Source: a virus
Direction: 5' to 3' (one strand)
Virus record (IMG/VR): IMGVR_UViG_3300045988_091734
Location: 1-49,403 of that record
Length of the DNA stretch: 49,403 nucleotides
Under the pieces are notes generated by a model. That model ran no database searches, was not told where the DNA came from, and was given only the letters and a program-made list of their open reading frames with translations. Positions 1 to 49,403 of the stretch are shown here, piece after piece. Made by a program: the position numbers and the translations under genes. How positions within the stretch are numbered: position 1 is the first letter of the stretch; each line of letters starts with the position of its first letter.

Positions 1-75
1 CAGCGTTGCAATGGTCTGAGAACCCCTGAGAATCCAACAGTTCTAAGGATTTTGTTTGCTTTCCATGGAAGAAAG
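1..75. repeat. 75-bp terminal direct repeat, copy 1
   Basis: Bases 1-75 (cagcgttgcaatggtctgag...ccatggaagaaag) are letter-for-letter identical to 49329-49403. Confidence 0.95.
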
Positions 76-219
76 CGAAAGCGGTTTTTTCTTCGCTACT
101 CTGCGTTTGCGTATGTCTTGTAATTGCTCAATCTGCTGTTATCGCGCATGGCTTTTGCAATCCCCAAATTCGCAATTTTGACTCTCTTTCCGTCGCACGA
201 AGTAGTCAAAACGGGGGTC

Positions 220-257
220 AAAAAATCCCCTCCATGCAGTGCTGTGCATGGAAGGGA
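220..257 (-). terminator. rho-independent terminator of the 3501->370 operon and of the P8 transcript
   Basis: Minus strand: 13-bp stem TCCCTTCCATGCA/TGCATGGAGGGGA (226-238 / 245-257, one mismatch), 6-nt loop, followed by T6 (plus-strand A run 220-225). Confidence 0.75.
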
Positions 258-338
258 TGAAAGAAAGAATCACCCGGCACGACTACCGCACGCTATGCGT
301 GCTGGTGAATCACCCTCGTGTACTCCGGCGAGCTTCTT
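220..338 (-). ncRNA. candidate ~120-nt small RNA (consensus promoter to terminator, no ORF)
   Basis: P8 places a start near 338 and the terminator ends at 220. No RBS-preceded ORF lies between. Contains a perfect GCACGC-ATA-GCGTGC hairpin, two GGGTGATTC direct repeats and a CU-rich stretch TTCTTTCTTTCATCCCTTCC. Confidence 0.45.
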
Positions 339-344
339 ACTATT

Positions 345-373
345 ATTATAAACGTTTCTGTGCATCTTGTCAA
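345..373 (-). promoter_or_regulatory. P8: exact consensus promoter TTGACA-17-TATAAT
   Basis: Minus strand reads TTGACAagatgcacagaaacgttTATAATaatagt. The -35 overlaps the stop codon of CDS 370..714. Confidence 0.7.
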
Positions 374-714
374 GCGTTTTTCTGTGAGATAATCTGCGCC
401 CACTTCTTTGCATCCTGCACGCGCTTTCGCTCCTCCGGCGTGTTGACGCTGATGGAATGCAGTGCCGTCTCCACCTGCTGTATTGTCGGCACGGTGTCCA
501 AGTCCGCGCTATGCGTCATGAGGACAACCGCATCCCGGCGCTTCTTGTCATCGGCAGATTCCTGCACGCTCTGTGCATCGGCTTTCGGGGCTGACCGCGT
601 GGCGAGGTACTCACGCACCGTAATCAACGCTGCCAAATCGCGGATGTTCTGCGGATTGTTGCCCTCTTCGATTGCCTTCTCAATCTGCCCATCAATCCAC
701 GTCAACGTAACCAC
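370..714 (-). CDS. hypothetical protein (last gene of the post-lysis accessory cluster)
   Basis: 345-nt ORF co-oriented with upstream genes; no motif recognised. Confidence 0.6.
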   Translation of the reverse strand: MVTLTWIDGQIEKAIEEGNNPQNIRDLAALITVREYLATRSAPKADAQSVQESADDKKRRDAVVLMTHSADLDTVPTIQQVETALHSISVNTPEERKRVQDAKKWAQIISQKNA

Positions 715-734
715 GCAGCCAGCCCCCCTTTCCG

Positions 735-1112
735 TTATGCTTCTTTCAGTTCTTCCAGCGCCCGCCGAATCACGTCACGCTTCCCCGGCTCGATGGTGCG
801 CATCAGCTCTTCCAGCTCGTCCATCAGGCGCTTGTCCGTGCCGTCGTGGCGGCTGTACCGTCCGCGCATATCGCGTCCACGGCGGCTGTATCGGTCGTCG
901 CGGTACATACCGTCATAGCTGCCACGCGCTTCCCAGTCTCCGCCGTTATTGCTGTATCCATCCGCTTCAAGCATCTCAATCTTGTCGATGTTTTTGATGG
1001 TATCCGTCAGCTTGTGGACGGCTTCGAGGTCGCCAGCAGACATGTCCTGCTTCTCCGCAATCTCTTGCAGCTCTTCGCAGAGTTTTTCTTTAAGTTCGTG
1101 AAGATATTTCAT
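735..1112 (-). CDS. hypothetical coiled-coil protein with R/G/Y-rich central repeats
   Basis: ATG at 1112 lies 7 nt after AAAGGAG, so the track start 1148 is judged over-extended. Has RGRDMRGRYSR-type repeats between acidic helical ends. Confidence 0.65.
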   Translation of the reverse strand: MKYLHELKEKLCEELQEIAEKQDMSAGDLEAVHKLTDTIKNIDKIEMLEADGYSNNGGDWEARGSYDGMYRDDRYSRRGRDMRGRYSRHDGTDKRLMDELEELMRTIEPGKRDVIRRALEELKEA

Positions 1113-1128
1113 TGCGTTTCTCCTTTCC

Positions 1129-1554
1129 TCACGCAACCCGCGTGACAATCAGGTTGGCGTTCTGCACGTCAATATCCACGCCAGCGTTATTTTTGACGCT
1201 GATGGTCGTGCAGCACCCTGCCGGAACGTCAACAAAGGTATCGACGCTGACGTTCTGGTATTGCGCCGCTGCCGCAGGGGTGACGATGGCGGTAGAAGCC
1301 GGAAGCGCCTCACCCGCGATTGCAAGCGCAACAGAGATAGCTCCGGCAGTGCCGCCCGTCGGAATGGCGATATTGCCGCCAAAGTTTACGCGAAAACGCG
1401 CGCGGCACTGTCCGTTGGTAATTCCCCGTAGCGTTACGATGCCAGACCCCTCACGATGGACGATGCACCGCGTGGCGCAAACGGGCGTTGCAGTAAAAAG
1501 GACGTTGTCGCCATTGGCGACGGTTTGAGCCGCCGCCGCAGTATATTCAGCCAT
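1129..1554 (-). CDS. hypothetical protein, tentatively BclA C-terminal / C1q-TNF-like jelly-roll domain
   Basis: ATG 1554 follows a GAAAGGAG RBS. The beta-rich A/G/V sequence ending ...NANLIVTRVA recalls the exosporium BclA C-terminal domain (recollection only). Confidence 0.5.
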   Translation of the reverse strand: MAEYTAAAAQTVANGDNVLFTATPVCATRCIVHREGSGIVTLRGITNGQCRARFRVNFGGNIAIPTGGTAGAISVALAIAGEALPASTAIVTPAAAAQYQNVSVDTFVDVPAGCCTTISVKNNAGVDIDVQNANLIVTRVA

Positions 1555-1658
1555 GATTTTTCTCCTTTCAGCGGCAGGGCGCGAATCAATCAACGCCCCG
1601 CCGCTTTTTCAGTTGCCGTTATCGGCTCATCCTGCACAGGCAGGAAGCTGTCTGGAGC

Positions 1659-2411
1659 TTACCCGGCGCAATACTGCGTCTGGGTGCAGCAGTACGGGTT
1701 GGCTACCGTATACGCCGGAACAGGGCAAGGACGAATCGTATTCACCAGATACTGGTTCTGTGCTGCCTGAGACGCGGCAAGCTGCAAGCCGAAAATCTGC
1801 TGATTCTGCGCTGCAATCTTCTCGTCCTTCGCCTCAATGCGCTGTGCCGTCAGTGCGTCAATCACCGCTCTGGCGTTAGCGTTGGCGTTGTCCAAAATGT
1901 CGCGAACACCGCTCTGAATGGTGTTGCGAGTGTCGCAAGCCTGAGTGGCAAGGTTGTAATTCATACCCTGGATCGCCGTCTGCGTTTTGCAGCAGCAATC
2001 CGCCGCCTGTGCCTGCATCGCGTTAAGCTGCTGCATCAGCGCGGTCTGTTGATTGGCGCGAGAGAGTTCTGCCTGAGCGAAGCCGTTAGCCATCTGCATC
2101 TGTACGCCATTGGTGAGCTGCGCCTGTGCATAGAATCCGTCACACAAGCCGCTGTTCACGTTGTCGATTTTTCGCTCGATATTGGCGAAGTCGGAGGTGA
2201 GGACGTAACCGTCCATGACAGAACCCTGTCCACCGTTGCGATTGCCAAAGCCGCCCCAGCTATTATTGCCCCACCCGCAGAAGACGAAGAGGAAGAGGAT
2301 AATAATCCACCACGCACCGTTTCCGCCGAACATGCCGTCGCCGTTCTGGTTGCTGTTCCGCCCGGAAAGCAGAGCCACGTCAGAAGCGGAGAGTTCCGAA
2401 GTCATACTCAT
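1659..2411 (-). CDS. membrane-anchored coiled-coil protein with Cys-rich C-terminus
   Basis: ATG 2411 follows an AAAGGAG RBS. Has a G/N-rich N-terminus, one TM segment (WWIIILFLFVFCGW), a Q/A-rich coiled coil and a tail PCPVP..YCCTQTQYCAG. Confidence 0.65.
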   Translation of the reverse strand: MSMTSELSASDVALLSGRNSNQNGDGMFGGNGAWWIIILFLFVFCGWGNNSWGGFGNRNGGQGSVMDGYVLTSDFANIERKIDNVNSGLCDGFYAQAQLTNGVQMQMANGFAQAELSRANQQTALMQQLNAMQAQAADCCCKTQTAIQGMNYNLATQACDTRNTIQSGVRDILDNANANARAVIDALTAQRIEAKDEKIAAQNQQIFGLQLAASQAAQNQYLVNTIRPCPVPAYTVANPYCCTQTQYCAG

Positions 2412-2474
2412 GTTTTTTCTCCTTTCGGAATTTGAAGTATATGCTAAATTGTTGCGCAACAATGATAGCCAAAG

Positions 2475-2693
2475 TTAAGAACCGAGGAACGATTGAAACA
2501 TTTGTGCCGCCTGTTGAAGCTGATTAAGCTGGTTTTGCGAGATTTTGCCGGAGGCAATCAGCTTGCGCACCTCCTGCTCCGGGTCGCCCTGAAACGTCGC
2601 CTTGAACTGCTGAAACTGCTGCATCATCTGCTGGAAATTTCCCAGCGCTCCGGGCATCTGCCCGCCGCCAAGTGCATTAAACAGTGGGTTCAT
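2475..2693 (-). CDS. small Q-rich hypothetical protein
   Basis: Internal ATG at 2693 (MNPLFNALGG...); 72 aa; overlaps the upstream gene end by 17 nt. Confidence 0.5.
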   Translation of the reverse strand: MNPLFNALGGGQMPGALGNFQQMMQQFQQFKATFQGDPEQEVRKLIASGKISQNQLNQLQQAAQMFQSFLGS

Positions 2694-3120
2694 CCTGCGT
2701 CGTTGCCCCCTTCTTCTTGCGCCCCTCAAGCGCGTCAAGGCGCCTTGTAAGCGTGTTGAGTTCGTCCCGAGTCACATAATCCGGCGCGTCCTGTGTGCTG
2801 CTGGGTGGCGTTACAGGCGCGTTGCGCTCCGTGTAGTCAAACGTGCGCATAGACGGCATTCCTGCCGCGTCCGCCGACTTGATGTAAAACGTCTGCTTTT
2901 CGCTGTCCATCAGCAGAACGCTCGAGCCGTTGGCGACAAGGTAGCTTTTCGCTCCGGCTTCACCCTGCACCCAAATCAGTCCGTTGCTTGACGGCTGCGC
3001 TGGTTGCTGCATCATCGGCTGCTGCGCTGCTCGAAGCTGCGCAAGCTGGTCGGGCATTGCCGTCTGCTGTGCGTTGTAATACGGCATTTGTGGATAATAT
3101 TGTGGATAACCATACGCCAT
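2677..3120 (-). CDS. hypothetical protein with Q/P/Y-rich N-terminus
   Basis: ATG 3120 follows a GGGAGG-type RBS. Low-complexity N-terminus, then a globular segment IWVQGEAGAKSYLV... Confidence 0.6.
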   Translation of the reverse strand: MAYGYPQYYPQMPYYNAQQTAMPDQLAQLRAAQQPMMQQPAQPSSNGLIWVQGEAGAKSYLVANGSSVLLMDSEKQTFYIKSADAAGMPSMRTFDYTERNAPVTPPSSTQDAPDYVTRDELNTLTRRLDALEGRKKKGATTQDEPTV

Positions 3121-3530: not shown

Positions 3531-3600
3531 GCGATTCGGACGGTTGGAAAATGCAGACAAAGCGCTGAAAAGATGCAAAAAAACTTGCGAAAAATCTTGA
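3531..3600 (+). pseudogene. decayed 3' remnant of an RHH gene (homologous to 5408..5484)
   Basis: gcgattcggacggttg...caaaaaaacttgcgaaaaatcttga parallels gtgattcggcggttg...caaaaaacttgcgaaaaatcttga at the end of CDS 5311..5484, but the frame is broken and shortened. Confidence 0.35.
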
Positions 3601-3607
3601 AATAGTA

Positions 3608-3636
3608 TTGACAAGTTGCACAACTTGTGATATAAT
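3608..3636 (+). promoter_or_regulatory. P1: exact consensus promoter with class-A palindromic operator in the spacer
   Basis: TTGACAagttgcacaacttgtgaTATAAT. The palindrome ACAAGTTG-ca-CAACTTGT (3611-3628) spans the -35 and spacer. Confidence 0.8.
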
Positions 3637-3642
3637 AATTAG

Positions 3643-3693
3643 TGTCAAGGGGGAGGTACAAAATAAAACTCCGGACAGAAAGAGGTAACGAGT
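3643..3693 (+). promoter_or_regulatory. structured 5' leader copy 1 (hairpin + GACAGAAAGAGG RBS)
   Basis: GTCaagggGGAG-GTACAAAATAAAA-CTCCgGAC hairpin (3643-3675), then ACAGAAAGAGGTAAcgagtATG. Confidence 0.6.
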
Positions 3694-4191
3694 ATGGCAC
3701 GAGCAATCGCGGAATGCACCTGCGCCAAGTGTGGCGCGAAATTCGAGAAAGTCCAGTTCCGTTCCAACCGCAAGATGGCGGACGAATGGAAGGCGTGGGC
3801 GGAAGAGAACTGCACCACCTGCCCCGATTGCTGGGCAAAGGTGAAGCAGGAGAAGGACGCTGCGAAGGCGGAGGCTCTAATTGAAGAACTGCATCTCCCA
3901 GAAATCGTCGGAAAATCGGCGAAGCAAGTCAGGTACGCAGATGACTTGCGGAACAAATACATTGTGAGATCTGCTGAATATATTCGCTTCATGCACAATT
4001 GCCTCTGTGATGAGCAATTCAAAGGGCGGAAACAATGCGAGGCAGAAGCCAAAAAAGAAGGGCTGTCCGTCTCAGAATGGATAGAGCAAAGGGCGAACAG
4101 CACGCCATATGATTATGAAAATCATGCGGCATGGACTGTGCTGCATAGCAGCGAAGCGCGAAAAATCATTGACGCGCTGACGAGCTACTAA
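3694..4191 (+). CDS. zinc-ribbon hypothetical protein (first gene of the P1 operon)
   Basis: ATG lies 8 nt after AGAGG of leader 1. Has CAKCG...CTTCPDC cysteine pairs at the N-terminus. Confidence 0.7.
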   Translation: MARAIAECTCAKCGAKFEKVQFRSNRKMADEWKAWAEENCTTCPDCWAKVKQEKDAAKAEALIEELHLPEIVGKSAKQVRYADDLRNKYIVRSAEYIRFMHNCLCDEQFKGRKQCEAEAKKEGLSVSEWIEQRANSTPYDYENHAAWTVLHSSEARKIIDALTSY

Positions 4192-4215
4192 AAAGAATAA
4201 GCAGGAGGATAAACA

Positions 4216-4482
4216 ATGCTGGACGAAATGAAACTCAATTACTGTGAAGAAATCTTCACGCCCGAAGAGGCAGCAGCCCTGTTTGCTGCCTACATCCAGA
4301 AGCACCCGGAAAACCACATCAAGCAGGCACATCCCCATCCCTACTACATGGATGGCGCAATTGGCGCATGGTGCGCTGACGTAAACAATCTCGCTTTTGA
4401 GGGTGTCCTTGTCCTTGGCGCTGATAAGGACATCGCGCTTGAGTGGACGCACACGACAAGCGGCGAATTGCTGGCGCGATAA
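4216..4482 (+). CDS. small hypothetical protein
   Basis: ATG follows an AGGAGG RBS (gcaggaggataaacaATG); 88 aa. Confidence 0.65.
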   Translation: MLDEMKLNYCEEIFTPEEAAALFAAYIQKHPENHIKQAHPHPYYMDGAIGAWCADVNNLAFEGVLVLGADKDIALEWTHTTSGELLAR

Positions 4483-4529
4483 AAAGCACCCCGCCCCGGA
4501 GATTACGAGGGCAGAAGAAAGGAAATATT

Positions 4530-4961
4530 ATGACTAACGTTACTTCGATTCAGTTCCCTGCCGATGCCGTCGTCGTCGGTCTTTGCGCCGGGCGGCATGA
4601 CATGCCTGTGGAAGAGTTTATTTTTCCTCAGGTGGTTGACCCAACGGACTTTGCTGGAATGGATTCTATCGCGAAAGACTTCATTTTGTCCCGTGTTGGC
4701 GTGCGAGCTTCGGTAAATGGACCGCACGCCAACTACGTCGGTGTAGACCCTGACTACGAGTGCTGCGGCGGTGTCGATGATTACGACATCGACTATATGC
4801 AGTTCTGGGATGGCGAGCATCCGCTCGTTGTCTATGTGACTGGGCTGACGGCTTGCGTGGCGGCAGTCATCTCGGTCTGCGTGCGCTGCGGGGTTGACCT
4901 GACCCTGATGCACTACGACCGCGAGACCGGCAACTACCTGCCGCAGGTCGTCCTCGGTTGA
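4530..4961 (+). CDS. hypothetical protein
   Basis: Internal ATG 4530 follows GAAAGGAAA, so the track start 4443 is judged over-extended; 143 aa. Confidence 0.6.
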   Translation: MTNVTSIQFPADAVVVGLCAGRHDMPVEEFIFPQVVDPTDFAGMDSIAKDFILSRVGVRASVNGPHANYVGVDPDYECCGGVDDYDIDYMQFWDGEHPLVVYVTGLTACVAAVISVCVRCGVDLTLMHYDRETGNYLPQVVLG

Positions 4962-4976
4962 TGGCGGAGGGGTAAA

Positions 4977-5372
4977 ATGGCATACGGCGATAGAGATTAC
5001 AGCCTACAAGGGACAGAAGGGTTACAGATAACATATAATGGCGCTATCTACACGCTGGACGAGAATATTGCTTGTCACGTCTCTGCGCCAATCTGGGATG
5101 ATGATTTGGGCGACTATTTTTGTCCGTACTGCGAGGCGGTCGGGCGGCTGACGGACGATGAAAATGGCAATTCCCGCGAGGTATACTACGACTTCGATTC
5201 TGTCGAGCAGATGGAGGAATGGGAGAAAACCCGCAACTTTTCCGCGTGTATTACCGGGATTTTGGTCCTGGAAGACGCGGATGAAAGAATAAAACTAAGA
5301 GGAACAAAAAATGCTGAAAAAAGATGGAAACCGCATTGTCAAAAACGTAATTGTGACGCACGAGCAGAATGA
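4977..5372 (+). CDS. acidic hypothetical protein with CPYC motif
   Basis: ATG follows a GGAGGGG RBS; 131 aa; the 3' end overlaps the RHH ORF by 62 nt, so the true stop region is uncertain. Confidence 0.55.
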   Translation: MAYGDRDYSLQGTEGLQITYNGAIYTLDENIACHVSAPIWDDDLGDYFCPYCEAVGRLTDDENGNSREVYYDFDSVEQMEEWEKTRNFSACITGILVLEDADERIKLRGTKNAEKRWKPHCQKRNCDARAE

Positions 5373-5484
5373 GCAAATTAAGGCGATTGGGCAGCGAATT
5401 GGGCTAAGTGATTCGGCGGTTGTCCGCCTTGCCCTATCGCAGTGGCTTGCGGAAAGAGCGCAAAAAACTTGCGAAAAATCTTGA
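5311..5484 (+). CDS. ribbon-helix-helix (CopG/Arc/MetJ-type) DNA-binding protein, RHH-A
   Basis: Not in the ORF track (57 aa). ATG follows an AAGAGGAAC RBS. Pattern is beta strand KNVIVTH, helix EQIKAIGQRIG, helix SDSAVVRLALSQWLAE. The 3' end runs into the upstream block of P2. Confidence 0.65.
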   Translation: MLKKDGNRIVKNVIVTHEQNEQIKAIGQRIGLSDSAVVRLALSQWLAERAQKTCEKS

Positions 5485-5491
5485 AAAGGTA

Positions 5492-5520
5492 TTGACAAGT
5501 TGCGCAACCTGTGCTATAAT
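5492..5520 (+). promoter_or_regulatory. P2: exact consensus promoter with class-A operator (one mismatch)
   Basis: TTGACAagttgcgcaacctgtgcTATAAT with palindrome ACAAGTTGC/GCAACcTGT. Confidence 0.8.
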
Positions 5521-5527
5521 AAATCAT

Positions 5528-5579
5528 GTCAGGATGGTGGTACAAAACAAAAACCCCCCGACAGAAAGAGGTAAGAATT
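5528..5579 (+). promoter_or_regulatory. structured 5' leader copy 2
   Basis: GTCaggatGGTGG-TACAAAACAAAAA-CCCCCcGAC hairpin (5528-5562), then ACAGAAAGAGGTAAgaattATG. Confidence 0.6.
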
Positions 5580-5849
5580 ATGAAGTTGACTGATGGCAAG
5601 CGCACGGTTGAGATTGAGATGCTGACGTGGGACGATAACAAGGAGCGGTATATCGGTAGTGACTACGCTCCCTACTTCTTCGACGGGTGCGAAGGCACGG
5701 ACGCGATGCAAGTGGAAGATGTTGACTACTGCATCGGTCAGGCGGAAGACTGGGAGAGGTTCCGTGGGGACTTCTTGGATGATGAGGCTGCAGAAGGTGA
5801 AGAGCGCGTTGTGCGCGTGACGGAGATTGCAGAGGACAAGGAGCATTAA
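5580..5849 (+). CDS. small, strongly acidic hypothetical protein (about 30% D+E)
   Basis: ATG lies 8 nt after AGAGG of leader 2. 89 aa with 27 D/E by hand count, so a DNA-mimic-like composition. Confidence 0.7.
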   Translation: MKLTDGKRTVEIEMLTWDDNKERYIGSDYAPYFFDGCEGTDAMQVEDVDYCIGQAEDWERFRGDFLDDEAAEGEERVVRVTEIAEDKEH

Positions 5850-5860
5850 GGTTTTCTATC

Positions 5861-5897
5861 TCCCCTCCCCATCGGCGGCATCGCAGGTGGGGAGGGA
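5861..5897 (+). promoter_or_regulatory. stem-loop between the P2 gene and the AP2 gene (possible attenuator or weak terminator)
   Basis: TCCCCTCCCC / GGGGAGGGA stem (9 bp, one bulge), 18-nt loop, T-rich run only ~13 nt downstream. Confidence 0.3.
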
Positions 5898-5916
5898 CGA
5901 TGCAAGGTGATTTTCT

Positions 5917-7746
5917 TTGGAAAAAAACAGCATTTGGACGATTCAAGCGCCTAACGGCACAATATACCGCACAAATCAATTGCGCAAGTTTATGTTTGCG
6001 CATCCAGAATGGTTTGCAAAGCCCGCTACTCAATATGTGACGGCATACAACTTTTTGCAAAAAAAAGAACCGGGAAAACGGCTGTGTACATTCGCAGGTG
6101 GTTGGGTTGTATTATCTAATACTTTCCGCCATGATGATATGGCGCAGTCCATCCATTGGTGGAGAATAAAGTCACCCGATGGCAAGGAACATCTTGTCAT
6201 CGGCGAACGGTATCGACATTTTTTGCAAACATGTGGTTATTTTGAAGTTGGAAGTGAACCATATTATTATTTTAAGTGCGGCTTAAAAAAAGCAAGCGAA
6301 GAAGGAACGCCTGTTACTCTAAAAAATGGATGGATAATCGCGCGTCCTGTCCCGCTCGACGAGTTTCGGCTGGTTGATATTGTAGGACCGGAAATGGAGC
6401 AGGAGTATATCTACGACGCAAACGGAAATTCGCACCCCAAACGCCTTAGCGATGTCCGAAACTACAAACGCGGACAAATTGAGTGGACAATTGCTGACCC
6501 GGACGGCAGAATATACCACACAAAAAGCCTATTTAATTTTTTGCGAGAGCGGAAGGATTTTTCCGAGAACCCACGGTCGGCTGTGGCAATGTTTTCGCAA
6601 ATAATTGCTATACGTTGCGGGTTGAGAAACGGGAAGAAATTAACGTTAAAGAACGGTTGGACTGCGTTAGACCGTTCCGACGTACATGATTTGATTGAGC
6701 AAAGGAAGCAAAACTATCAGGAAAGTGCAACAAACAAGCCGATAGAGCGAAAACACAGAGACTTGACGGGTCAAAGATTTGGGATGCTGACTGCTCTTTA
6801 TCGGCTTGACGGGAAAGGGAAGGCGAAGTGGCGTTGCCGTTGTGATTGCGGAATTGAGAGAGATGTTTTGAGCGACACCCTGATTCGCGGACACAGAACC
6901 AGTTGCGGATGCCGTGGAAGCAAAGACTTGACCAATCAACGTTTTGGCTCTTTGATAGCCCTATACCGAATTACTGGGAACGGCAAGGCAAAATGGCACT
7001 GCCGATGCGATTGTGGCAATGAAAAAGATGTTTTTGGGGAAGACCTCCTTCGCGGAAATACAACGAGTTGTGGATTCTGCAAATACGACGATTTGACTGG
7101 TCAACGTTTCGGTGCATTGACCGTTCTTTCCCGCGTCGAAGGGGAAGAGCGTACAATGTGGCATTGTCGCTGTGACTGCGGCAACGAAAAAGACATATTA
7201 GCCGGCAACTTGCGGAGCGGGCTTGTTACGAGCTGCGGGTGCGGAAGAAACAGAATCGCTGCTCGAACGGAAAGCCTTGCAGTCACACCGCAAGCGTCAT
7301 TTAACGACATCGCCGGGAAACGTTTTGGAATGTTAACTGCTATCCGCTACGACAGGCAAAAACGTCGTTGGCTTTGCCGATGCGATTGCGGAGGCGAGTG
7401 CTACTTAAATTGCGCAGAGCTTAAAACACGCCGTGATTGCGGCTGTTCTGCTGCGCAGGCAGCGGCAGAACGAATAAAAGCTGGCGCAAACGGAAATCGC
7501 CTCGGCACAAACATCAACACCATCACCAATATTATGAGCGGAAAATTACGAAAAACTAACACTTCCGGCATCACTGGCGTATCAATCAAGGGCAATTGCT
7601 ATCGAGCCAGAATTGTCGTGCGTGGGCGCGAAATAAATTTAGGCAAATTTACCACATTAGAAGCTGCCGTCCGCGCAAGAAAAGAAGCAGAAAAGAAGTA
7701 TTTCGCTCCGCTCATCGAGCAAGACAAGGAAAACCAAAAGGAGTAA
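5917..7746 (+). CDS. multi-repeat DNA-binding protein: 3 N-terminal repeats, 4 zinc-ribbon repeats, C-terminal AP2 domain
   Basis: Three W.I..PDG..Y...F...KNGW units. Four DLTGQRFG.LT......W.C.CDCG......L..G...SCGC units (nt ~6760-7450). C-terminal NTSGITGVS...YRARI..RGREINLGKF.TLEAAVRARKEAEKKYF matches the AP2/integrase-type DNA-binding domain. The TTG start is uncertain. Confidence 0.7.
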   Translation: MEKNSIWTIQAPNGTIYRTNQLRKFMFAHPEWFAKPATQYVTAYNFLQKKEPGKRLCTFAGGWVVLSNTFRHDDMAQSIHWWRIKSPDGKEHLVIGERYRHFLQTCGYFEVGSEPYYYFKCGLKKASEEGTPVTLKNGWIIARPVPLDEFRLVDIVGPEMEQEYIYDANGNSHPKRLSDVRNYKRGQIEWTIADPDGRIYHTKSLFNFLRERKDFSENPRSAVAMFSQIIAIRCGLRNGKKLTLKNGWTALDRSDVHDLIEQRKQNYQESATNKPIERKHRDLTGQRFGMLTALYRLDGKGKAKWRCRCDCGIERDVLSDTLIRGHRTSCGCRGSKDLTNQRFGSLIALYRITGNGKAKWHCRCDCGNEKDVFGEDLLRGNTTSCGFCKYDDLTGQRFGALTVLSRVEGEERTMWHCRCDCGNEKDILAGNLRSGLVTSCGCGRNRIAARTESLAVTPQASFNDIAGKRFGMLTAIRYDRQKRRWLCRCDCGGECYLNCAELKTRRDCGCSAAQAAAERIKAGANGNRLGTNINTITNIMSGKLRKTNTSGITGVSIKGNCYRARIVVRGREINLGKFTTLEAAVRARKEAEKKYFAPLIEQDKENQKE

Positions 7747-7754
7747 GCAATAAA

Positions 7755-8348
7755 ATGCCAGAAGAGCACAAAGAACAGCTCATTTCGCAAACAACCGTTT
7801 TGTCTATGGGCTTCACTAAGTCCCTGATAGACAAGCTGCTTCCGCCGCCCATCCTTAAGCGGAATCCGCATTATGCGTCCTCATCTCCCATGAAACTGTG
7901 GCGCGATGACGATGTGCGTGCCATCATGGAGACGCCGGAGTTCCAAACGATGGCGGCGAAAGCAGCCGCACGGAAAGCGGCTGCTGCAAAAGCCGTCGAA
8001 ACGAAACGCAAGAACGCTGAAGGCATTGCCGATAATCTCATTGCATCCATCCACGTTACGCGCTGGGATATTCCCGTGTTGGAAGAGGCGACGCTGAACG
8101 CAAAGCAAGAATGGTTTCTCGAACACGGCAATGTGGATATGGCGACCCCAAACACCGAGACGCTGGAACGCTGGATGGTCAATTTTGTCCGCCATAATCT
8201 CTGCGAGTATGACGACAAGTTGATTGACCTTTTCGGGCTTATCGGCAAGGAAGCGCTGTACCAGCGCCTAAAAACTGAAACACTTGCGAAAATCGCGGAA
8301 GTATATCCAGAACTTGAAGTTGAGTGCAAGCGTCAGGCGCAAGTGTAG
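7755..8348 (+). CDS. hypothetical protein
   Basis: ATG 7755 follows AAGGAG, so the track start 7596 is judged over-extended. 197 aa, followed by a terminator. Confidence 0.6.
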   Translation: MPEEHKEQLISQTTVLSMGFTKSLIDKLLPPPILKRNPHYASSSPMKLWRDDDVRAIMETPEFQTMAAKAAARKAAAAKAVETKRKNAEGIADNLIASIHVTRWDIPVLEEATLNAKQEWFLEHGNVDMATPNTETLERWMVNFVRHNLCEYDDKLIDLFGLIGKEALYQRLKTETLAKIAEVYPELEVECKRQAQV

Positions 8349-45910: not shown

Positions 45911-46153
45911 TTGAGATTAAAAGCCTTGCGGCTGGAACGACACTTGCAGCAAAGCGATGTTGCAAGCATCATTGGCTGCGGACAGCCGCTTTACAGCCGC
46001 TATGAGCGCGGCGAACGTGAGATTCCACTGCCTGCGCTGATAGCCCTTGCAGACTTCTACGGCGTGTCCCTTGACTATCTCGTCGGGCGCTCCGACGACC
46101 CCACGTTCATGCCAGCCGCCGGAACTATCCCTTGCTCCTCCAGCAAGGACTGA
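45911..46153 (+). CDS. XRE-family HTH protein
   Basis: TTG start after GAGGTGA. LERHLQQSDVASIIGCGQPLYSRYERGEREIP; the 3' end overlaps convergent gene 46075..46611 by 79 nt. Confidence 0.6.
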   Translation: MRLKALRLERHLQQSDVASIIGCGQPLYSRYERGEREIPLPALIALADFYGVSLDYLVGRSDDPTFMPAAGTIPCSSSKD

Positions 46154-46611
46154 ATCACCTTTCGCGCTGTCAGCGTCCACATGGCAAACAGCTGCACCGT
46201 GCCGTGCTCCGTTTTGACTGGCTGGTAAGTCACCATGTCGGCGAAGTTCCCGGCGACCACATAAGAGCCGTCGGAGCGCTGTATCTGGATGCCAGCGCGG
46301 AACAGTGCCTGGTTAAACTCGCGTGTTGTCATGCCGTACTGCATCGCCAGCTTTGCCGTACTGATGGGCAGCGTGTCCGTGATGTTGACTGTCGGCACGT
46401 CCACTTTGCTGTAAACCTCCGGGAACGCCTCTCGGACTGTGCATCCGAGCGCTTCGGCAATGAGCTTCATCGCGTCAACCGTTGGGCTTCCATGTCCGTT
46501 TGCGTATCTGTAGATGGTTGTCTTCGAGATGCCGGACTTTTCGGACAGCGCGGCGACGCTGATTCCTTGTACCCCGGCAATGTGGAGAAAGTGCCGCAGC
46601 TTGTCAGCCAT
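46075..46611 (-). CDS. XRE HTH fused to a KilAC/antirepressor-like C-terminal domain
   Basis: ATG 46611 (ATGGCTGA overlap). GISVAALSEKSGISKTTIYRYANGHGSPT, then ...ISTAKLAMQYGMTTREFNQALFRAGIQIQ... Confidence 0.6.
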   Translation of the reverse strand: MADKLRHFLHIAGVQGISVAALSEKSGISKTTIYRYANGHGSPTVDAMKLIAEALGCTVREAFPEVYSKVDVPTVNITDTLPISTAKLAMQYGMTTREFNQALFRAGIQIQRSDGSYVVAGNFADMVTYQPVKTEHGTVQLFAMWTLTARKVIQSLLEEQGIVPAAGMNVGSSERPTR

Positions 46612-46804
46612 CGACTTCACCCCCGAACAGTTCTTCGACCGTCGTGTTGAGCGCACGGGCAAGACGAAGAGCGGTGTACACGTTCGGCGCGGACTTGCCC
46701 AGCTCGTAGATTCTCACGCTGGATGAGAACAACCCGCAAGCCCTTGCTAATCCGCGCTGTGTTGCCCCGGTGCGCATTCGGTATTCCCGCAGTCGGTTCG
46801 CCAT
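46604..46804 (-). CDS. XRE-family HTH protein
   Basis: ATG 46804 lies 8 nt after AGGAGG. YRMRTGATQRGLARACGLFSSSVRIYELGKSAP; driven by P7. Confidence 0.7.
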   Translation of the reverse strand: MANRLREYRMRTGATQRGLARACGLFSSSVRIYELGKSAPNVYTALRLARALNTTVEELFGGEVDG

Positions 46805-46878: not shown

Positions 46879-46911
46879 GGGGGTAGAAAGAAAAAAGTGT
46901 GGTGTAAATAT

Positions 46912-47340
46912 ATGGTTTTGTCTGAACGTCTTGTAGAATTGCGCAAAAAAAAAGGCGTCAGCCAACGAGCTGCCGCAGAAGGTATTGGAATCCAGAACGC
47001 TCAATTGAGCGGGTACGAACGTGGTGCGAACGAGCCGTCCGCCGCCATGCTTGCCCGCCTTGCCGAATACTACGGTGTGACCACCGACTACCTGTGCGGA
47101 CTGTCCGACAACCCGCAAGGAACGTCAGACCGCCCGATTCTCGACGCAACCTGCGAGGCGATTATCGACAAGCTGATGGGTGCGCCGGATGACGTGGTGC
47201 GTGAGGCGATGGACTACGTTGAGTACCTCACCGCGAAGGCGGAACGTCGGATGCGTCAGGAGCGCAGGGAACGTGATAGCTTAAAGCGCATGGCGGACAA
47301 GGTGGATGCTGAAAAGGGCGACCAGAAGGAAGAACCGTAA
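46912..47340 (+). CDS. XRE-family repressor-like protein with C-terminal extension
   Basis: MVLSERLVELRKKKGVSQRAAAEGIGIQNAQLSGYERGANEPS. The C-terminal ...VVREAMDYVEYLTAK resembles the 43749 and 44087 paralogs. The start lacks an obvious RBS. Confidence 0.65.
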   Translation: MVLSERLVELRKKKGVSQRAAAEGIGIQNAQLSGYERGANEPSAAMLARLAEYYGVTTDYLCGLSDNPQGTSDRPILDATCEAIIDKLMGAPDDVVREAMDYVEYLTAKAERRMRQERRERDSLKRMADKVDAEKGDQKEEP

Positions 47341-47464: not shown

Positions 47465-47682
47465 GTTTCTGCACCATTTCCGCGAAGTCACGAAAATGGT
47501 CTGTTGCGAAATTATCATCTGCGCGAATCCACGAAGATGACCATGCTGTGGATGTCCGCAAAATGGTGCTCAAAAAAAGACCGCCGCCACCACCGCAAAA
47601 AAATCGCGTCAGCGCATTTTTTTCTTTGTTGTTTTCTTTTTTTATTTTATTTTTATTCCTTTTATTTCTTTTCTTTTTATAC

Positions 47683-47751
47683 ATAGCTCAGCTATTTATT
47701 TTTTTAGCTTAGCTATTTTATTTTTAGCTCAGCTATTTATTTTTTAGCTGA
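47683..47751. repeat. array of (A)TAGCT(C/T)AGCTA(T) palindromes at 20-21-bp phasing in an AT-rich island
   Basis: ATAGCTCAGCTAT 47683-47695, TAGCTTAGCTA 47705-47715, TAGCTCAGCTA 47725-47735, half-site TAGCTGA 47745-47751, each followed by a T-rich tract. Confidence 0.9.
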
Positions 47752-47899
47752 TTTACTTTTAAAGATGGTGCAAAGCCTTGAAATCACTGCATTTCAGGCG
47801 TTTTCGCAAATTAAAATCACCATCCGTGTCTGACCTTTCTTGACCTTTAAGACGAAAAATGTTACAAGATTATTACGGAGCAAAACTGCAAAAATAAAA

Positions 47900-47912
47900 A
47901 TAGCTTAGCTAT
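47900..47912. repeat. fifth ATAGCTTAGCTAT palindrome
   Basis: Exact 13-bp palindrome 10 nt downstream of the stop of CDS 47922..48086. Confidence 0.85.
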
Positions 47913-47921
47913 TCGCTTTTT

Positions 47922-48262: not shown

Positions 48263-49312
48263 TTGCCACGCCAGACACTTAAAAAGCGCCCCGACGGGCG
48301 TTATGTTTGCAAATATAAAGGCTTTTCGTTCTACGGGCGAACGCAGTCCGAAGCCCTTGCCGCCCGTGAAGAGTACAAGAAACAGGAAAAATACGGCAGG
48401 AAACCACGGGAAAAGTACACGTTCGCGGAGTACGCAGCGGAGTGGCTGCCGACTTACAAGAGCGAGGTGACCATAAATGTATATGATGCGTATGTCTCAC
48501 GCCTTAACCAGATAGCATCAATCCTGCCGCAAACAGAGATGCGACTAATCACTCCGTCGGATATACAGCGACTTTATAACGCTTTTTCCGACCGCGGAGA
48601 AGGGACGCGAAGGAAGATAGCCGAAGCAACGAGAGCGGTTTTTCGCGCTGCCAAGAATGATGGAATAGTTGCAATTTCTCCCTGCGAGAACGTTAGGCGG
48701 AAGAAGGGGGCAGTAGGGACGCACCGTAATCTTGATGATTGGGAAATAAAGCTAATCAGAGACACTTGTGAAAGCGAAAGAATGGGAATTTACGCGATGG
48801 TGATGTTGTATGCAGGACTTAGGCGCGGAGAAGCGCTTGCGCTCGATATTGATGATGATGTTGATTTTGAGAAAGGTGTGATTCACGTCCGAAAGGCGAT
48901 TCGACGCGAACGTTCCGACTATATTATCACTGTACCAAAGACAAAAGCTGGTATTCGTGACGTGCCGCTGTTTCCGCCGTTACTGGATGTTTTGCAAGGG
49001 CGACACGGAAGCGTTATAATATCGAAAGATAACAAAATTATTTCTTTCAGCGCTGTGACCGATGCGTGGAAGCGTTACCAAAATCATCTATCAAAAATTG
49101 CGGGGAGAAATGTGGCAATCAGGCAGCACGATTGCAGACATACTTTTGCGACGATGCTCTATGATGCGGATGTTGACATTAAAACTGCCGCGCGCTGGAT
49201 GGGGCATGAGGATGAGACGATGATAATGCGGATATACGCACATCTCACGGAAAAAAAGGAAGAAAACGCCATCAGAAGGGTCGAAAGTATGTTGACTTCT
49301 ACGCCCAAGTAG
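48263..49312 (+). CDS. int: tyrosine recombinase / phage integrase
   Basis: TTG 48263 lies 8 nt after AAAGGAG. Catalytic-type motifs LYAGLRRGEALAL, RQHDCRHTFAT, WMGHED...MRIYAHL. Confidence 0.9.
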   Translation: MPRQTLKKRPDGRYVCKYKGFSFYGRTQSEALAAREEYKKQEKYGRKPREKYTFAEYAAEWLPTYKSEVTINVYDAYVSRLNQIASILPQTEMRLITPSDIQRLYNAFSDRGEGTRRKIAEATRAVFRAAKNDGIVAISPCENVRRKKGAVGTHRNLDDWEIKLIRDTCESERMGIYAMVMLYAGLRRGEALALDIDDDVDFEKGVIHVRKAIRRERSDYIITVPKTKAGIRDVPLFPPLLDVLQGRHGSVIISKDNKIISFSAVTDAWKRYQNHLSKIAGRNVAIRQHDCRHTFATMLYDADVDIKTAARWMGHEDETMIMRIYAHLTEKKEENAIRRVESMLTSTPK

Positions 49313-49328: not shown

Positions 49329-49403
49329 CAGCGTTGCAATGGTCTGAGAACCCCTGAGAATCCAACAGTTCTAAGGATTTTGTTTGCTTTCCATGGAAGA
49401 AAG
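49329..49403. repeat. 75-bp terminal direct repeat, copy 2
   Basis: Identical to bases 1-75. Confidence 0.95.

Follow-up and report, generated by a model that had tools for sequence, protein, structure and literature searches.

An orphan DUF3800-VII RNA near the end of a temperate Clostridia phage: a candidate trans-acting partner of DUF3800 nucleases

Eleven unrelated RNA motifs have been described near genes for DUF3800 proteins, several of them followed by terminators, with no obvious functional hypothesis (Weinberg et al. 2017, PMC5737381). In later papers DUF3800 appears as an RNase H-like domain to which no activity has been assigned; type VII retrons have it as their effector (Mestre et al. 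2020, PMC7736814), it occurs fused to tetratricopeptide (TPR) repeats beside Cas12a2/a3, and it figures as Csx32 in a Cas13-kinase operon. Here we describe an RNA of this kind in a 49,403-nt stretch of viral DNA (IMG/VR record IMGVR_UViG_3300045988_091734, taken at its full length and called the window from here on). Judged by its sequence, the region from 338 to 260 on the minus strand is a structured non-coding RNA (ncRNA) of the DUF3800-VII family (Rfam RF02967), Clostridia-type subfamily. The family is already known, and what is new is an orphan phage member of a subfamily with variant junctions. The locus offers a compact RNA of ~85 nt with a defined promoter, fold and terminator.

The nearby DUF3800 gene is the context in which the RF02967 motif was discovered and not a property of the RNA itself. 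The other motifs of the series from DUF3800-I to -XI, together with the drum and skipping-rope motifs, are likewise structured, tied to DUF3800 and often flanked by a terminator, but their folds are unrelated to that of motif VII and they may point in one direction or the other and lie to one side of the protein gene or the other (PMC5737381), whereas motif VII was strictly convergent in our samples. As with the described members of RF02967, the window RNA gives a full-length match above the gathering threshold, has a multi-helix fold, is followed by a terminator and is found in a phage or prophage context. It differs from them in that its 3' junction reads GGUAGUCG where the Rfam consensus has GGGAUCC, in that it has no DUF3800 neighbour, in that its own U-tail has been deleted so that it is fused to an operon terminator, and in that it sits at the far prophage end and not by the integrase.

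In type III toxin-antitoxin systems a tandem-repeat RNA antitoxin is encoded upstream of the toxin gene and co-directional with it, and a phage-borne pseudo-ToxI reportedly serves as an antidote to ToxN. The logic that we propose below would be analogous, in that a structured RNA made from a strong promoter would neutralise a nuclease and an orphan copy is carried by a phage. However, DUF3800-VII RNA is not a ToxI-type antitoxin, because it is single-copy without tandem repeats and convergent to the protein gene; the protein, moreover, is RNase H-like and not ToxN-like. In the prophage type I toxin-antitoxin systems SR4/bsrG and RatA/txpA, the RNAs are cis-antisense and overlap the toxin gene at its 3' end. 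The RNA and DUF3800 genes of the relatives of the window RNA similarly overlap or abut at their 3' ends, but here the 'toxin' would be an enzyme of 250 amino acids (aa) instead of a small membrane peptide, and the window RNA has no cis partner. Small RNAs (sRNAs) of the DapZ/MicL type have their own promoter at the 3' end of an upstream gene and share its terminator. In the same way, the -35 element in the window lies across the stop codon of the gene upstream and the RNA makes use of the operon terminator, whereas the body of the RNA is a conserved, protein-partnered fold and not a seed-bearing sRNA of the Hfq type. Type VII retrons (Mestre et al. 2020, PMC7736814) combine a DUF3800 effector with a dedicated structured ncRNA in a mobile-element or defence context. 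Their RNA fold is different, and no reverse transcriptase was found among the window proteins or at the DUF3800-VII loci examined, so that the window system is not a retron. By analogy, DUF3800-VII RNA may still work as ToxI or a retron ncRNA does.

Fold and transcription unit of the window RNA

At gathering thresholds, RF02967 was the single Rfam match in the whole window. The match (cmscan; 338..260, minus strand) covers model positions 1-90 without truncation and scores 48.7 bits against a gathering threshold of 36.2 (E 6.5e-7), and a custom covariance model scores the same RNA at 80.4 bits, with 25-26 of its 27 pairs formed. The fold consists of helices P1 (338-332/271-265, with one G.A mismatch), P1a (330,328-325/277-273), P2 (320-316/282-278), P3 (314-311/307-304) and P4 (302-297/293-288), all on the minus strand, with the conserved junction GGUAG at 287-283. 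The family junctions CGCCGG, CAGC and CCGGG are kept, and the canonical GUGGGAUCC is swapped for GCGGUAGUC, a variant that is invariant across the Clostridia subfamily, whose members pass the Rfam gathering score; the 3' junction of the window RNA is also that of the Clostridia-type members. Every one of the 31 invariant columns of the subfamily alignment is intact in the window.

Relatives were gathered with DNA patterns drawn from the conserved junctions, which gave 18 distinct sequences from Clostridia phages and metagenome-assembled genomes (Lachnospiraceae, Oscillospiraceae, Allofournierella and others), all of which passed the Rfam gathering score except one degenerate copy, L206. In a MAFFT alignment of these 18 members 96.5% of the cells were paired and 12 of the 27 pairs had changed on both sides; none of 500 shuffles did as well, and slid controls reached at most 54% paired. 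For 42 distinct RNAs found through their neighbouring protein the corresponding values were 99.5% and 15 of 27, in an alignment that was model-fitted and hence leans toward structure. The fold occurs in many Clostridia and in other phyla. Its taxonomic range and orphan frequency are rough figures: in one genome scan for the RNA at least 120 loci matched, and 15 of the 120 listed were true members.

The original prediction, made from the letters of the window alone, had placed at this position an exact consensus promoter and a strong terminator enclosing a short transcript with no open reading frame (ORF), and this outline was borne out. The sigma-70-type promoter (345..373, minus strand) has TTGACA at 373..368, a spacer of 17 nt and TATAAT at 350..345, a 12/12 consensus match, and its -35 hexamer does contain the TGA stop (372..370) of the gene at 370..714, the overlap that had been pointed out. 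Exact TTGACA-N17-TATAAT sites number nine in the window, versus 0.1 expected from shuffles, and the extended -10 TATAATAATAGT, which had been seen to match other promoters, recurs at those of 29898 and 31413 (chance expectation 0). The predicted transcription start, 7-9 nt past the -10, falls at ~340..338, where the RF02967 match begins. The intrinsic terminator (219..258, minus strand) is common to the upstream operon and is made of a stem at 258..225, which we count as 14 bp with one G-U where 13 had been given, a 6-nt loop and a T-run to 220. Between 338 and 219 no ORF is preceded by a ribosome-binding site, as had been stated, the sole frame being a 20-codon one that starts with GTG and lacks a Shine-Dalgarno sequence. 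RNA folding had been proposed as a check, and the 126-nt transcript gave a folding energy of -53.9 kcal/mol, with z = -5.0 against shuffles. From promoter to terminator, the unit is a small-RNA gene in its own right, which contains no ORF and is served by a separate consensus promoter; its transcript is predicted.

This arrangement is shared by the relatives. A sigma-70-like promoter lies 8-11 nt before P1, and a U-run follows P1, in 30 of the 30 evaluable distinct metagenome relatives; therefore the unit of promoter, RNA and terminator belongs to the DUF3800-VII family and not to the window alone. In these relatives P1 and the U-run directly terminate the RNA.

The remaining elements named in the original prediction turned out to be parts of the fold. 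The perfect hairpin GCACGC-ATA-GCGTGC (302..288, minus strand) is present and is P4. The two copies of GGGTGATTC are present as well (314..306 and 274..266, minus strand); the first is hairpin P3 and the second the P1a/P1 3' strand, and, as the repeat is not kept among the aligned relatives, it did not hold as an element in its own right. Of the suggested 3'-untranslated-region sRNA the architecture stood, with its own promoter and a shared operon terminator, and the base-pairing body did not, since it is the RF02967 fold instead. The CU-rich stretch that had been likened to an anti-Shine-Dalgarno sequence is mostly the P1 3' strand and the terminator 5' arm; between them a CU-rich linker of 8 nt (UCUUUCAU; 257..264, minus strand) is left single-stranded, which an alignment of alleles marks as the scar of a 33-nt deletion and which shows no conservation across the family. 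We consider it very improbable that the RNA is a base-pairing sRNA that uses its CU-rich stretch to bind mRNAs of the phage or the host at their Shine-Dalgarno regions. Two of the alternative alleles at this position, C and D (see below), do consist of the promoter, a short CU-rich sequence and the terminator, and the linker and the CU-rich terminator arm are retained in the window. Nevertheless, most of the CU-rich sequence is tied up in helices, the body of the RNA is a covarying, junction-conserved fold of wide distribution, and a conserved single-stranded seed is absent from the family alignment.

Pairing with DUF3800 genes, RNA-only copies and a proposed role

With an alignment of 11 DUF3800 proteins as the query of a protein-first search, and counting full-length homologues of at least 50% identity, the RNA was found convergent to the protein gene at all 13 full-length homologues on viral contigs and at 79 of 79 evaluable loci in metagenomes, which brings the total to 92 of 92. 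At these loci the U-run of the RNA adjoins the stop codon of the DUF3800 gene or overlaps it. At distant DUF3800 loci (22-32% identity) a canonical DUF3800-VII RNA stood in the same convergent geometry in 10 of 20. At four loci (L167, L237, L241 and L254) the DUF3800 ORF continues through the RNA in antisense and ends in a conserved KKERTPG(T/A)TTT tail, and at others the TAA stop of the DUF3800 gene is the complement of the RNA's U-run. Starting from the RNA, a convergent gene for a DUF3800 protein of 240-260 aa (Pfam E ~1e-15) was found at 15 of the 22 loci listed. In many cases the module of DUF3800 gene and RNA has an integrase as its neighbour and belongs to the lysogeny/moron region. The DUF3800 clade matches the PADLOC candidate defence protein PDC-M04A weakly, and a PDB sequence search with the DUF3800 profile gave nothing significant.

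The window phage has the RNA and no such gene. Among the ~85 proteins predicted for it, none matched PF12686 (DUF3800) at E <= 1e-4, or at E <= 0.01 in the case of the 30 that were scanned singly; tblastn found no DUF3800 remnant in the window, and a scan of the window for the DESG motif gave nothing, in agreement with the Pfam scans; the window RNA is therefore an orphan. RNA-only copies occur elsewhere too. Among the RNA-first loci listed, five that are unrelated to the window have no intact DUF3800 gene (L199, L206, L221, L302 and L306). The RNA stands next to an Ltp exclusion lipoprotein and a CI repressor in L199 (1911-3266), next to an AbiEii toxin gene in L221 (4129-5189), next to a WYL-domain gene in L306, and inside a type I restriction-modification operon in L302 (2697-7820), where a 35-aa C-terminal remnant of DUF3800 persists. 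A scan of viral contigs with the canonical pattern gave 57 matches, and nine of these loci have the flanking helices of the family; they represent four distinct sequences (L073, L109, L117 and the identical group L076/77/83/120/121/124), all of which pass the Rfam gathering score. In these four canonical-type phages the RNA has HNH/terminase or methylase genes immediately downstream, in the same orientation, and DUF3800 is not nearby.

Two observations on these contigs are recorded here in their own right. The copy in L206 (~1800-1930) is a degenerate, DUF3800-VII-like sequence below the gathering score and without its own promoter or U-tail, which starts directly past the 3' end of a transfer RNA-like sequence, beside an integrase. 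L076, where a canonical DUF3800-VII RNA stands upstream of the terminase genes, also holds a twister-sister ribozyme (1077-1147, minus strand; 61 bits).

The reading that we favour, tentatively and at slightly less than even confidence, is that the window RNA, which sits as an orphan in a slot with variable cargo, targets DUF3800-type proteins in trans, most likely as a neutralising antidote. The family, fold and anatomy of the RNA, its pairing elsewhere, its orphan status and its slot are observed, and the trans action and neutralisation are inferred. A constitutive-looking consensus promoter would start transcription right at helix P1 and, because the RNA's own U-tail is deleted, transcription should stop at the operon terminator ~120 nt downstream. 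Since the unit is located ~140 nt in from the right end of the prophage and reads outward, it is predicted to be made in the lysogen and in early infection. The targets would be putative DUF3800-type proteins of the host or of co-resident mobile elements. The RNA would neutralise the DUF3800 nuclease, and the phage would thereby carry an antidote against DUF3800-based exclusion, in an antitoxin-like logic comparable to that of retron ncRNA and its multicopy single-stranded DNA (msDNA) for their effectors, or of phage pseudo-ToxI for ToxN.

Several lines of argument favour a neutralising partner. The conserved junction nucleotides argue for recognition by a protein over antisense pairing. No DUF3800 gene of this clade was seen to lack the RNA, whereas the RNA often occurs by itself, and phages repeatedly carry it alone (the window lineage and the four canonical-type phages). 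The effector of a retron is restrained by the msDNA that derives from the ncRNA, and by analogy the same may apply here, DUF3800 being one such effector.

Other points weigh against the favoured reading. The asymmetry between RNA and protein is suggestive only: ~25% of the RNAs at the loci listed have no DUF3800 gene and, as the RNA is a ~9-fold smaller mutational target, only ~3 RNA-less DUF3800 genes would be expected among 92, on the assumption that loss is neutral and scales with target size. The window RNA scores 48.7 bits versus 54.2 for allele A', the RNA-bearing form in its relatives, and this lower score, together with the G.A mismatch in P1 and the lost U-tail, suggests that decay could be starting. 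The RNA-bearing alleles, A of the window and A', are in the minority, being present in 7 of 48 viral relatives and in none of 6 prophage scaffolds. Expression of the RNA is predicted from sequence features and DUF3800 in the host is putative, and a search of the literature found no reported function for any DUF3800 RNA motif. A more specific version is doubtful, though worth stating. In it, DUF3800-VII RNA would be the antitoxin or inhibitor of an RNase H-like DUF3800 abortive-infection nuclease, the two forming a retron-like or type III-like system of two parts that needs no reverse transcriptase, and both temperate and lytic phages, the window phage among them, would have repeatedly captured the RNA alone as a portable anti-defence antidote. 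If the antidote reading is true, the pair would be a new RNA-protein defence and counter-defence system common in human-gut Clostridia.

The obligate pairing of DUF3800 with the RNA in 92 of 92 loci also suits a different idea, that the RNA is a cofactor which activates or scaffolds a host-encoded DUF3800 nuclease, so that the prophage aids superinfection exclusion. The usual place of the module is by integrases in the lysogeny/moron region, which is also home to exclusion genes such as Ltp, and the window promoter looks constitutive. We nevertheless regard this as rather unlikely, because the RNA alone would be useless without a compatible DUF3800 protein and there is none on the phage, because each DUF3800 gene of the clade already has its own RNA and an extra copy adds nothing obvious, and because the canonical orphan copies sit in lytic modules of other phages. 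RNA-only phage copies and the strict geometry make the question of antidote versus cofactor directly testable. The surroundings of the canonical copies, upstream of packaging or methylase genes and away from DUF3800, and the occurrence of orphan copies in several defence contexts, could also be explained if the RNA acted independently on a conserved phage or cellular target, in packaging or late transcription for instance, and DUF3800 only processed or regulated it. This is clearly unlikely, since the convergent DUF3800 geometry persists down to ~25% protein identity, and since the window RNA lies opposite the packaging genes on the genome, with only attP, the phage attachment site, downstream of it. 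What the locus and its relatives add to the family is the strict tail-to-tail rule (92/92), the recurrent RNA-only phage copies and the allelic slot at the prophage end.

The variable slot at the prophage end

The gene at 370..714 (minus strand), whose stop codon lies inside the -35 hexamer, is the last protein gene of the prophage. Its product of 114 aa has no family match, is 96-100% identical in 54 relatives (48 IMG/VR contigs and 6 prophage scaffolds) and is very common in human-gut assemblies. On scaffolds of 200-400 kb this gene is the last of the prophage, and 200-300 nt separate it from the first host genes at three different integration sites, in keeping with the earlier expectation that the RNA would adjoin the host junction at the end of the prophage.

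At least five alternative forms of the slot that follows the stop codon of this gene were found among the 54 near-identical phages. Allele B, without promoter and with the terminator directly after the stop, is the most frequent (22/48 IMG/VR contigs, 4/6 prophage scaffolds). Alleles C (7/48, 1/6), D (6/48, 0/6) and E (3/48, 1/6) have the same promoter, a short cargo that differs between the three and belongs to no Rfam family, and the terminator. Allele A' (7/48, 0/6) has the promoter, a DUF3800-VII RNA with a perfect P1 and a U9 tail, a remnant of D-type cargo and the terminator. The remaining 3 of the 48 IMG/VR loci stop at a contig edge. The homologous promoter is thus kept in A', C, D and E and absent from B. 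The window allele is A' with one substitution in P1 and the 33-nt deletion, which took the U9 tail and part of the cargo remnant and fused the RNA to the operon terminator; it has an exact match in no relative. In the window lineage nothing but the RNA, with P1 at one end and the U-run at the other, entered the slot, precisely between its -10 and the older cargo. The idea that the window RNA is a decayed DUF3800 module was rejected, given that nothing beyond the RNA was inserted.

The state of the window copy could also mean that the RNA is a passenger or a decaying remnant, at most a strong hairpin that shields host DNA against read-out transcription. The P1 mismatch and the lost U-tail would fit with this, as would the minority status of the allele and the 22 of 48 relatives that do without any cassette. 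Against it, the promoter is a perfect consensus, the invariant subfamily columns are all intact, the RNA core is identical in seven independent A' contigs, and a plain terminator is already present downstream. We give this explanation little credence.

The cassettes of the other alleles are of interest by themselves. Those of C (L004/L163), D (L007) and E (L003/L164) consist of the promoter, 25-60 nt and the terminator, C and D being CU-rich and E having a hairpin, and they may be uncharacterised phage sRNAs.

Beyond the slot, the prophage junctions place the approximate attachment-site (att) crossover or core for the window integrase type at 52..85, a segment that holds the inverted repeat GCTTTCCATGGAAGAAAGC. 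At the junctions in L159, L163 and L164 the match to the window reaches as far as ...CTTTCTTCCATGGAAAGCAAA, and the sequence beyond it belongs to a host gene for an SH3-domain protein. A terminator-like hairpin lies at 55-79 on the plus strand. The ENA gut metagenome scaffolds L159-L164 carry near-identical prophages at three different host sites: upstream of the SH3-domain gene near cinA, beside jag-yidC-rnpA-rpmH, and beside cobW-like genes. The att-proximal arm is exchanged past window position ~156, where the arms of different integrase types diverge. Between the terminator and this point, every allele keeps an inverted repeat of 8 bp on the minus strand at 176-211, TTTTGACT (211-204)...AGTCAAAA (183-176), which could be a binding site for a recombination protein or a regulator.

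The phage and other features of the window

The window ends in an exact 75-nt terminal direct repeat (1-75 = 49329-49403); it is therefore a contig that closes into a circle of 49,328 bp, on which the integrase gene and the RNA lie next to each other and converge across attP. It is the genome of a temperate, siphovirus-like phage with a Clostridia host. Genes were called by a self-trained codon model, and the products include a tyrosine integrase (48263..49312, plus strand; Pfam Phage_integrase, E 1.8e-22), two proteins with domain matches to helix-turn-helix (HTH), repressor-like proteins (46075..46620 and 46897..47340), an SPP1-type portal, a tail-associated Prophage_tail (endopeptidase tail) protein and an NlpC/P60-SH3 lysin. 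A megablast search of window positions 1-3000 against GenBank phages gave no match, and the identity of the portal protein to the portals of Clostridium phages does not exceed 37%.

A second hypervariable island is found at 3569-8348 (plus strand), under the control of two duplicated consensus promoters in a 100-nt repeat at 3569 and 5453. The genes from 4216 to 7746 have no homologues in 22 near-identical relatives, and one of them (5917-7746) encodes a protein of 609 aa that matches PHROG 374, 'HNH endonuclease', with E 1e-71 and may serve in defence or in homing. The plus-strand island at 3694-7746 was considered as the source of a partner for the RNA and rejected, because it is unique to the window, is absent from the A' relatives and shows no co-variation with the RNA. 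Finally, an AT-rich segment upstream of the integrase gene (47675-47921) holds four copies of a 30-mer that contains TAGCT(C/T)AGCTATTT.

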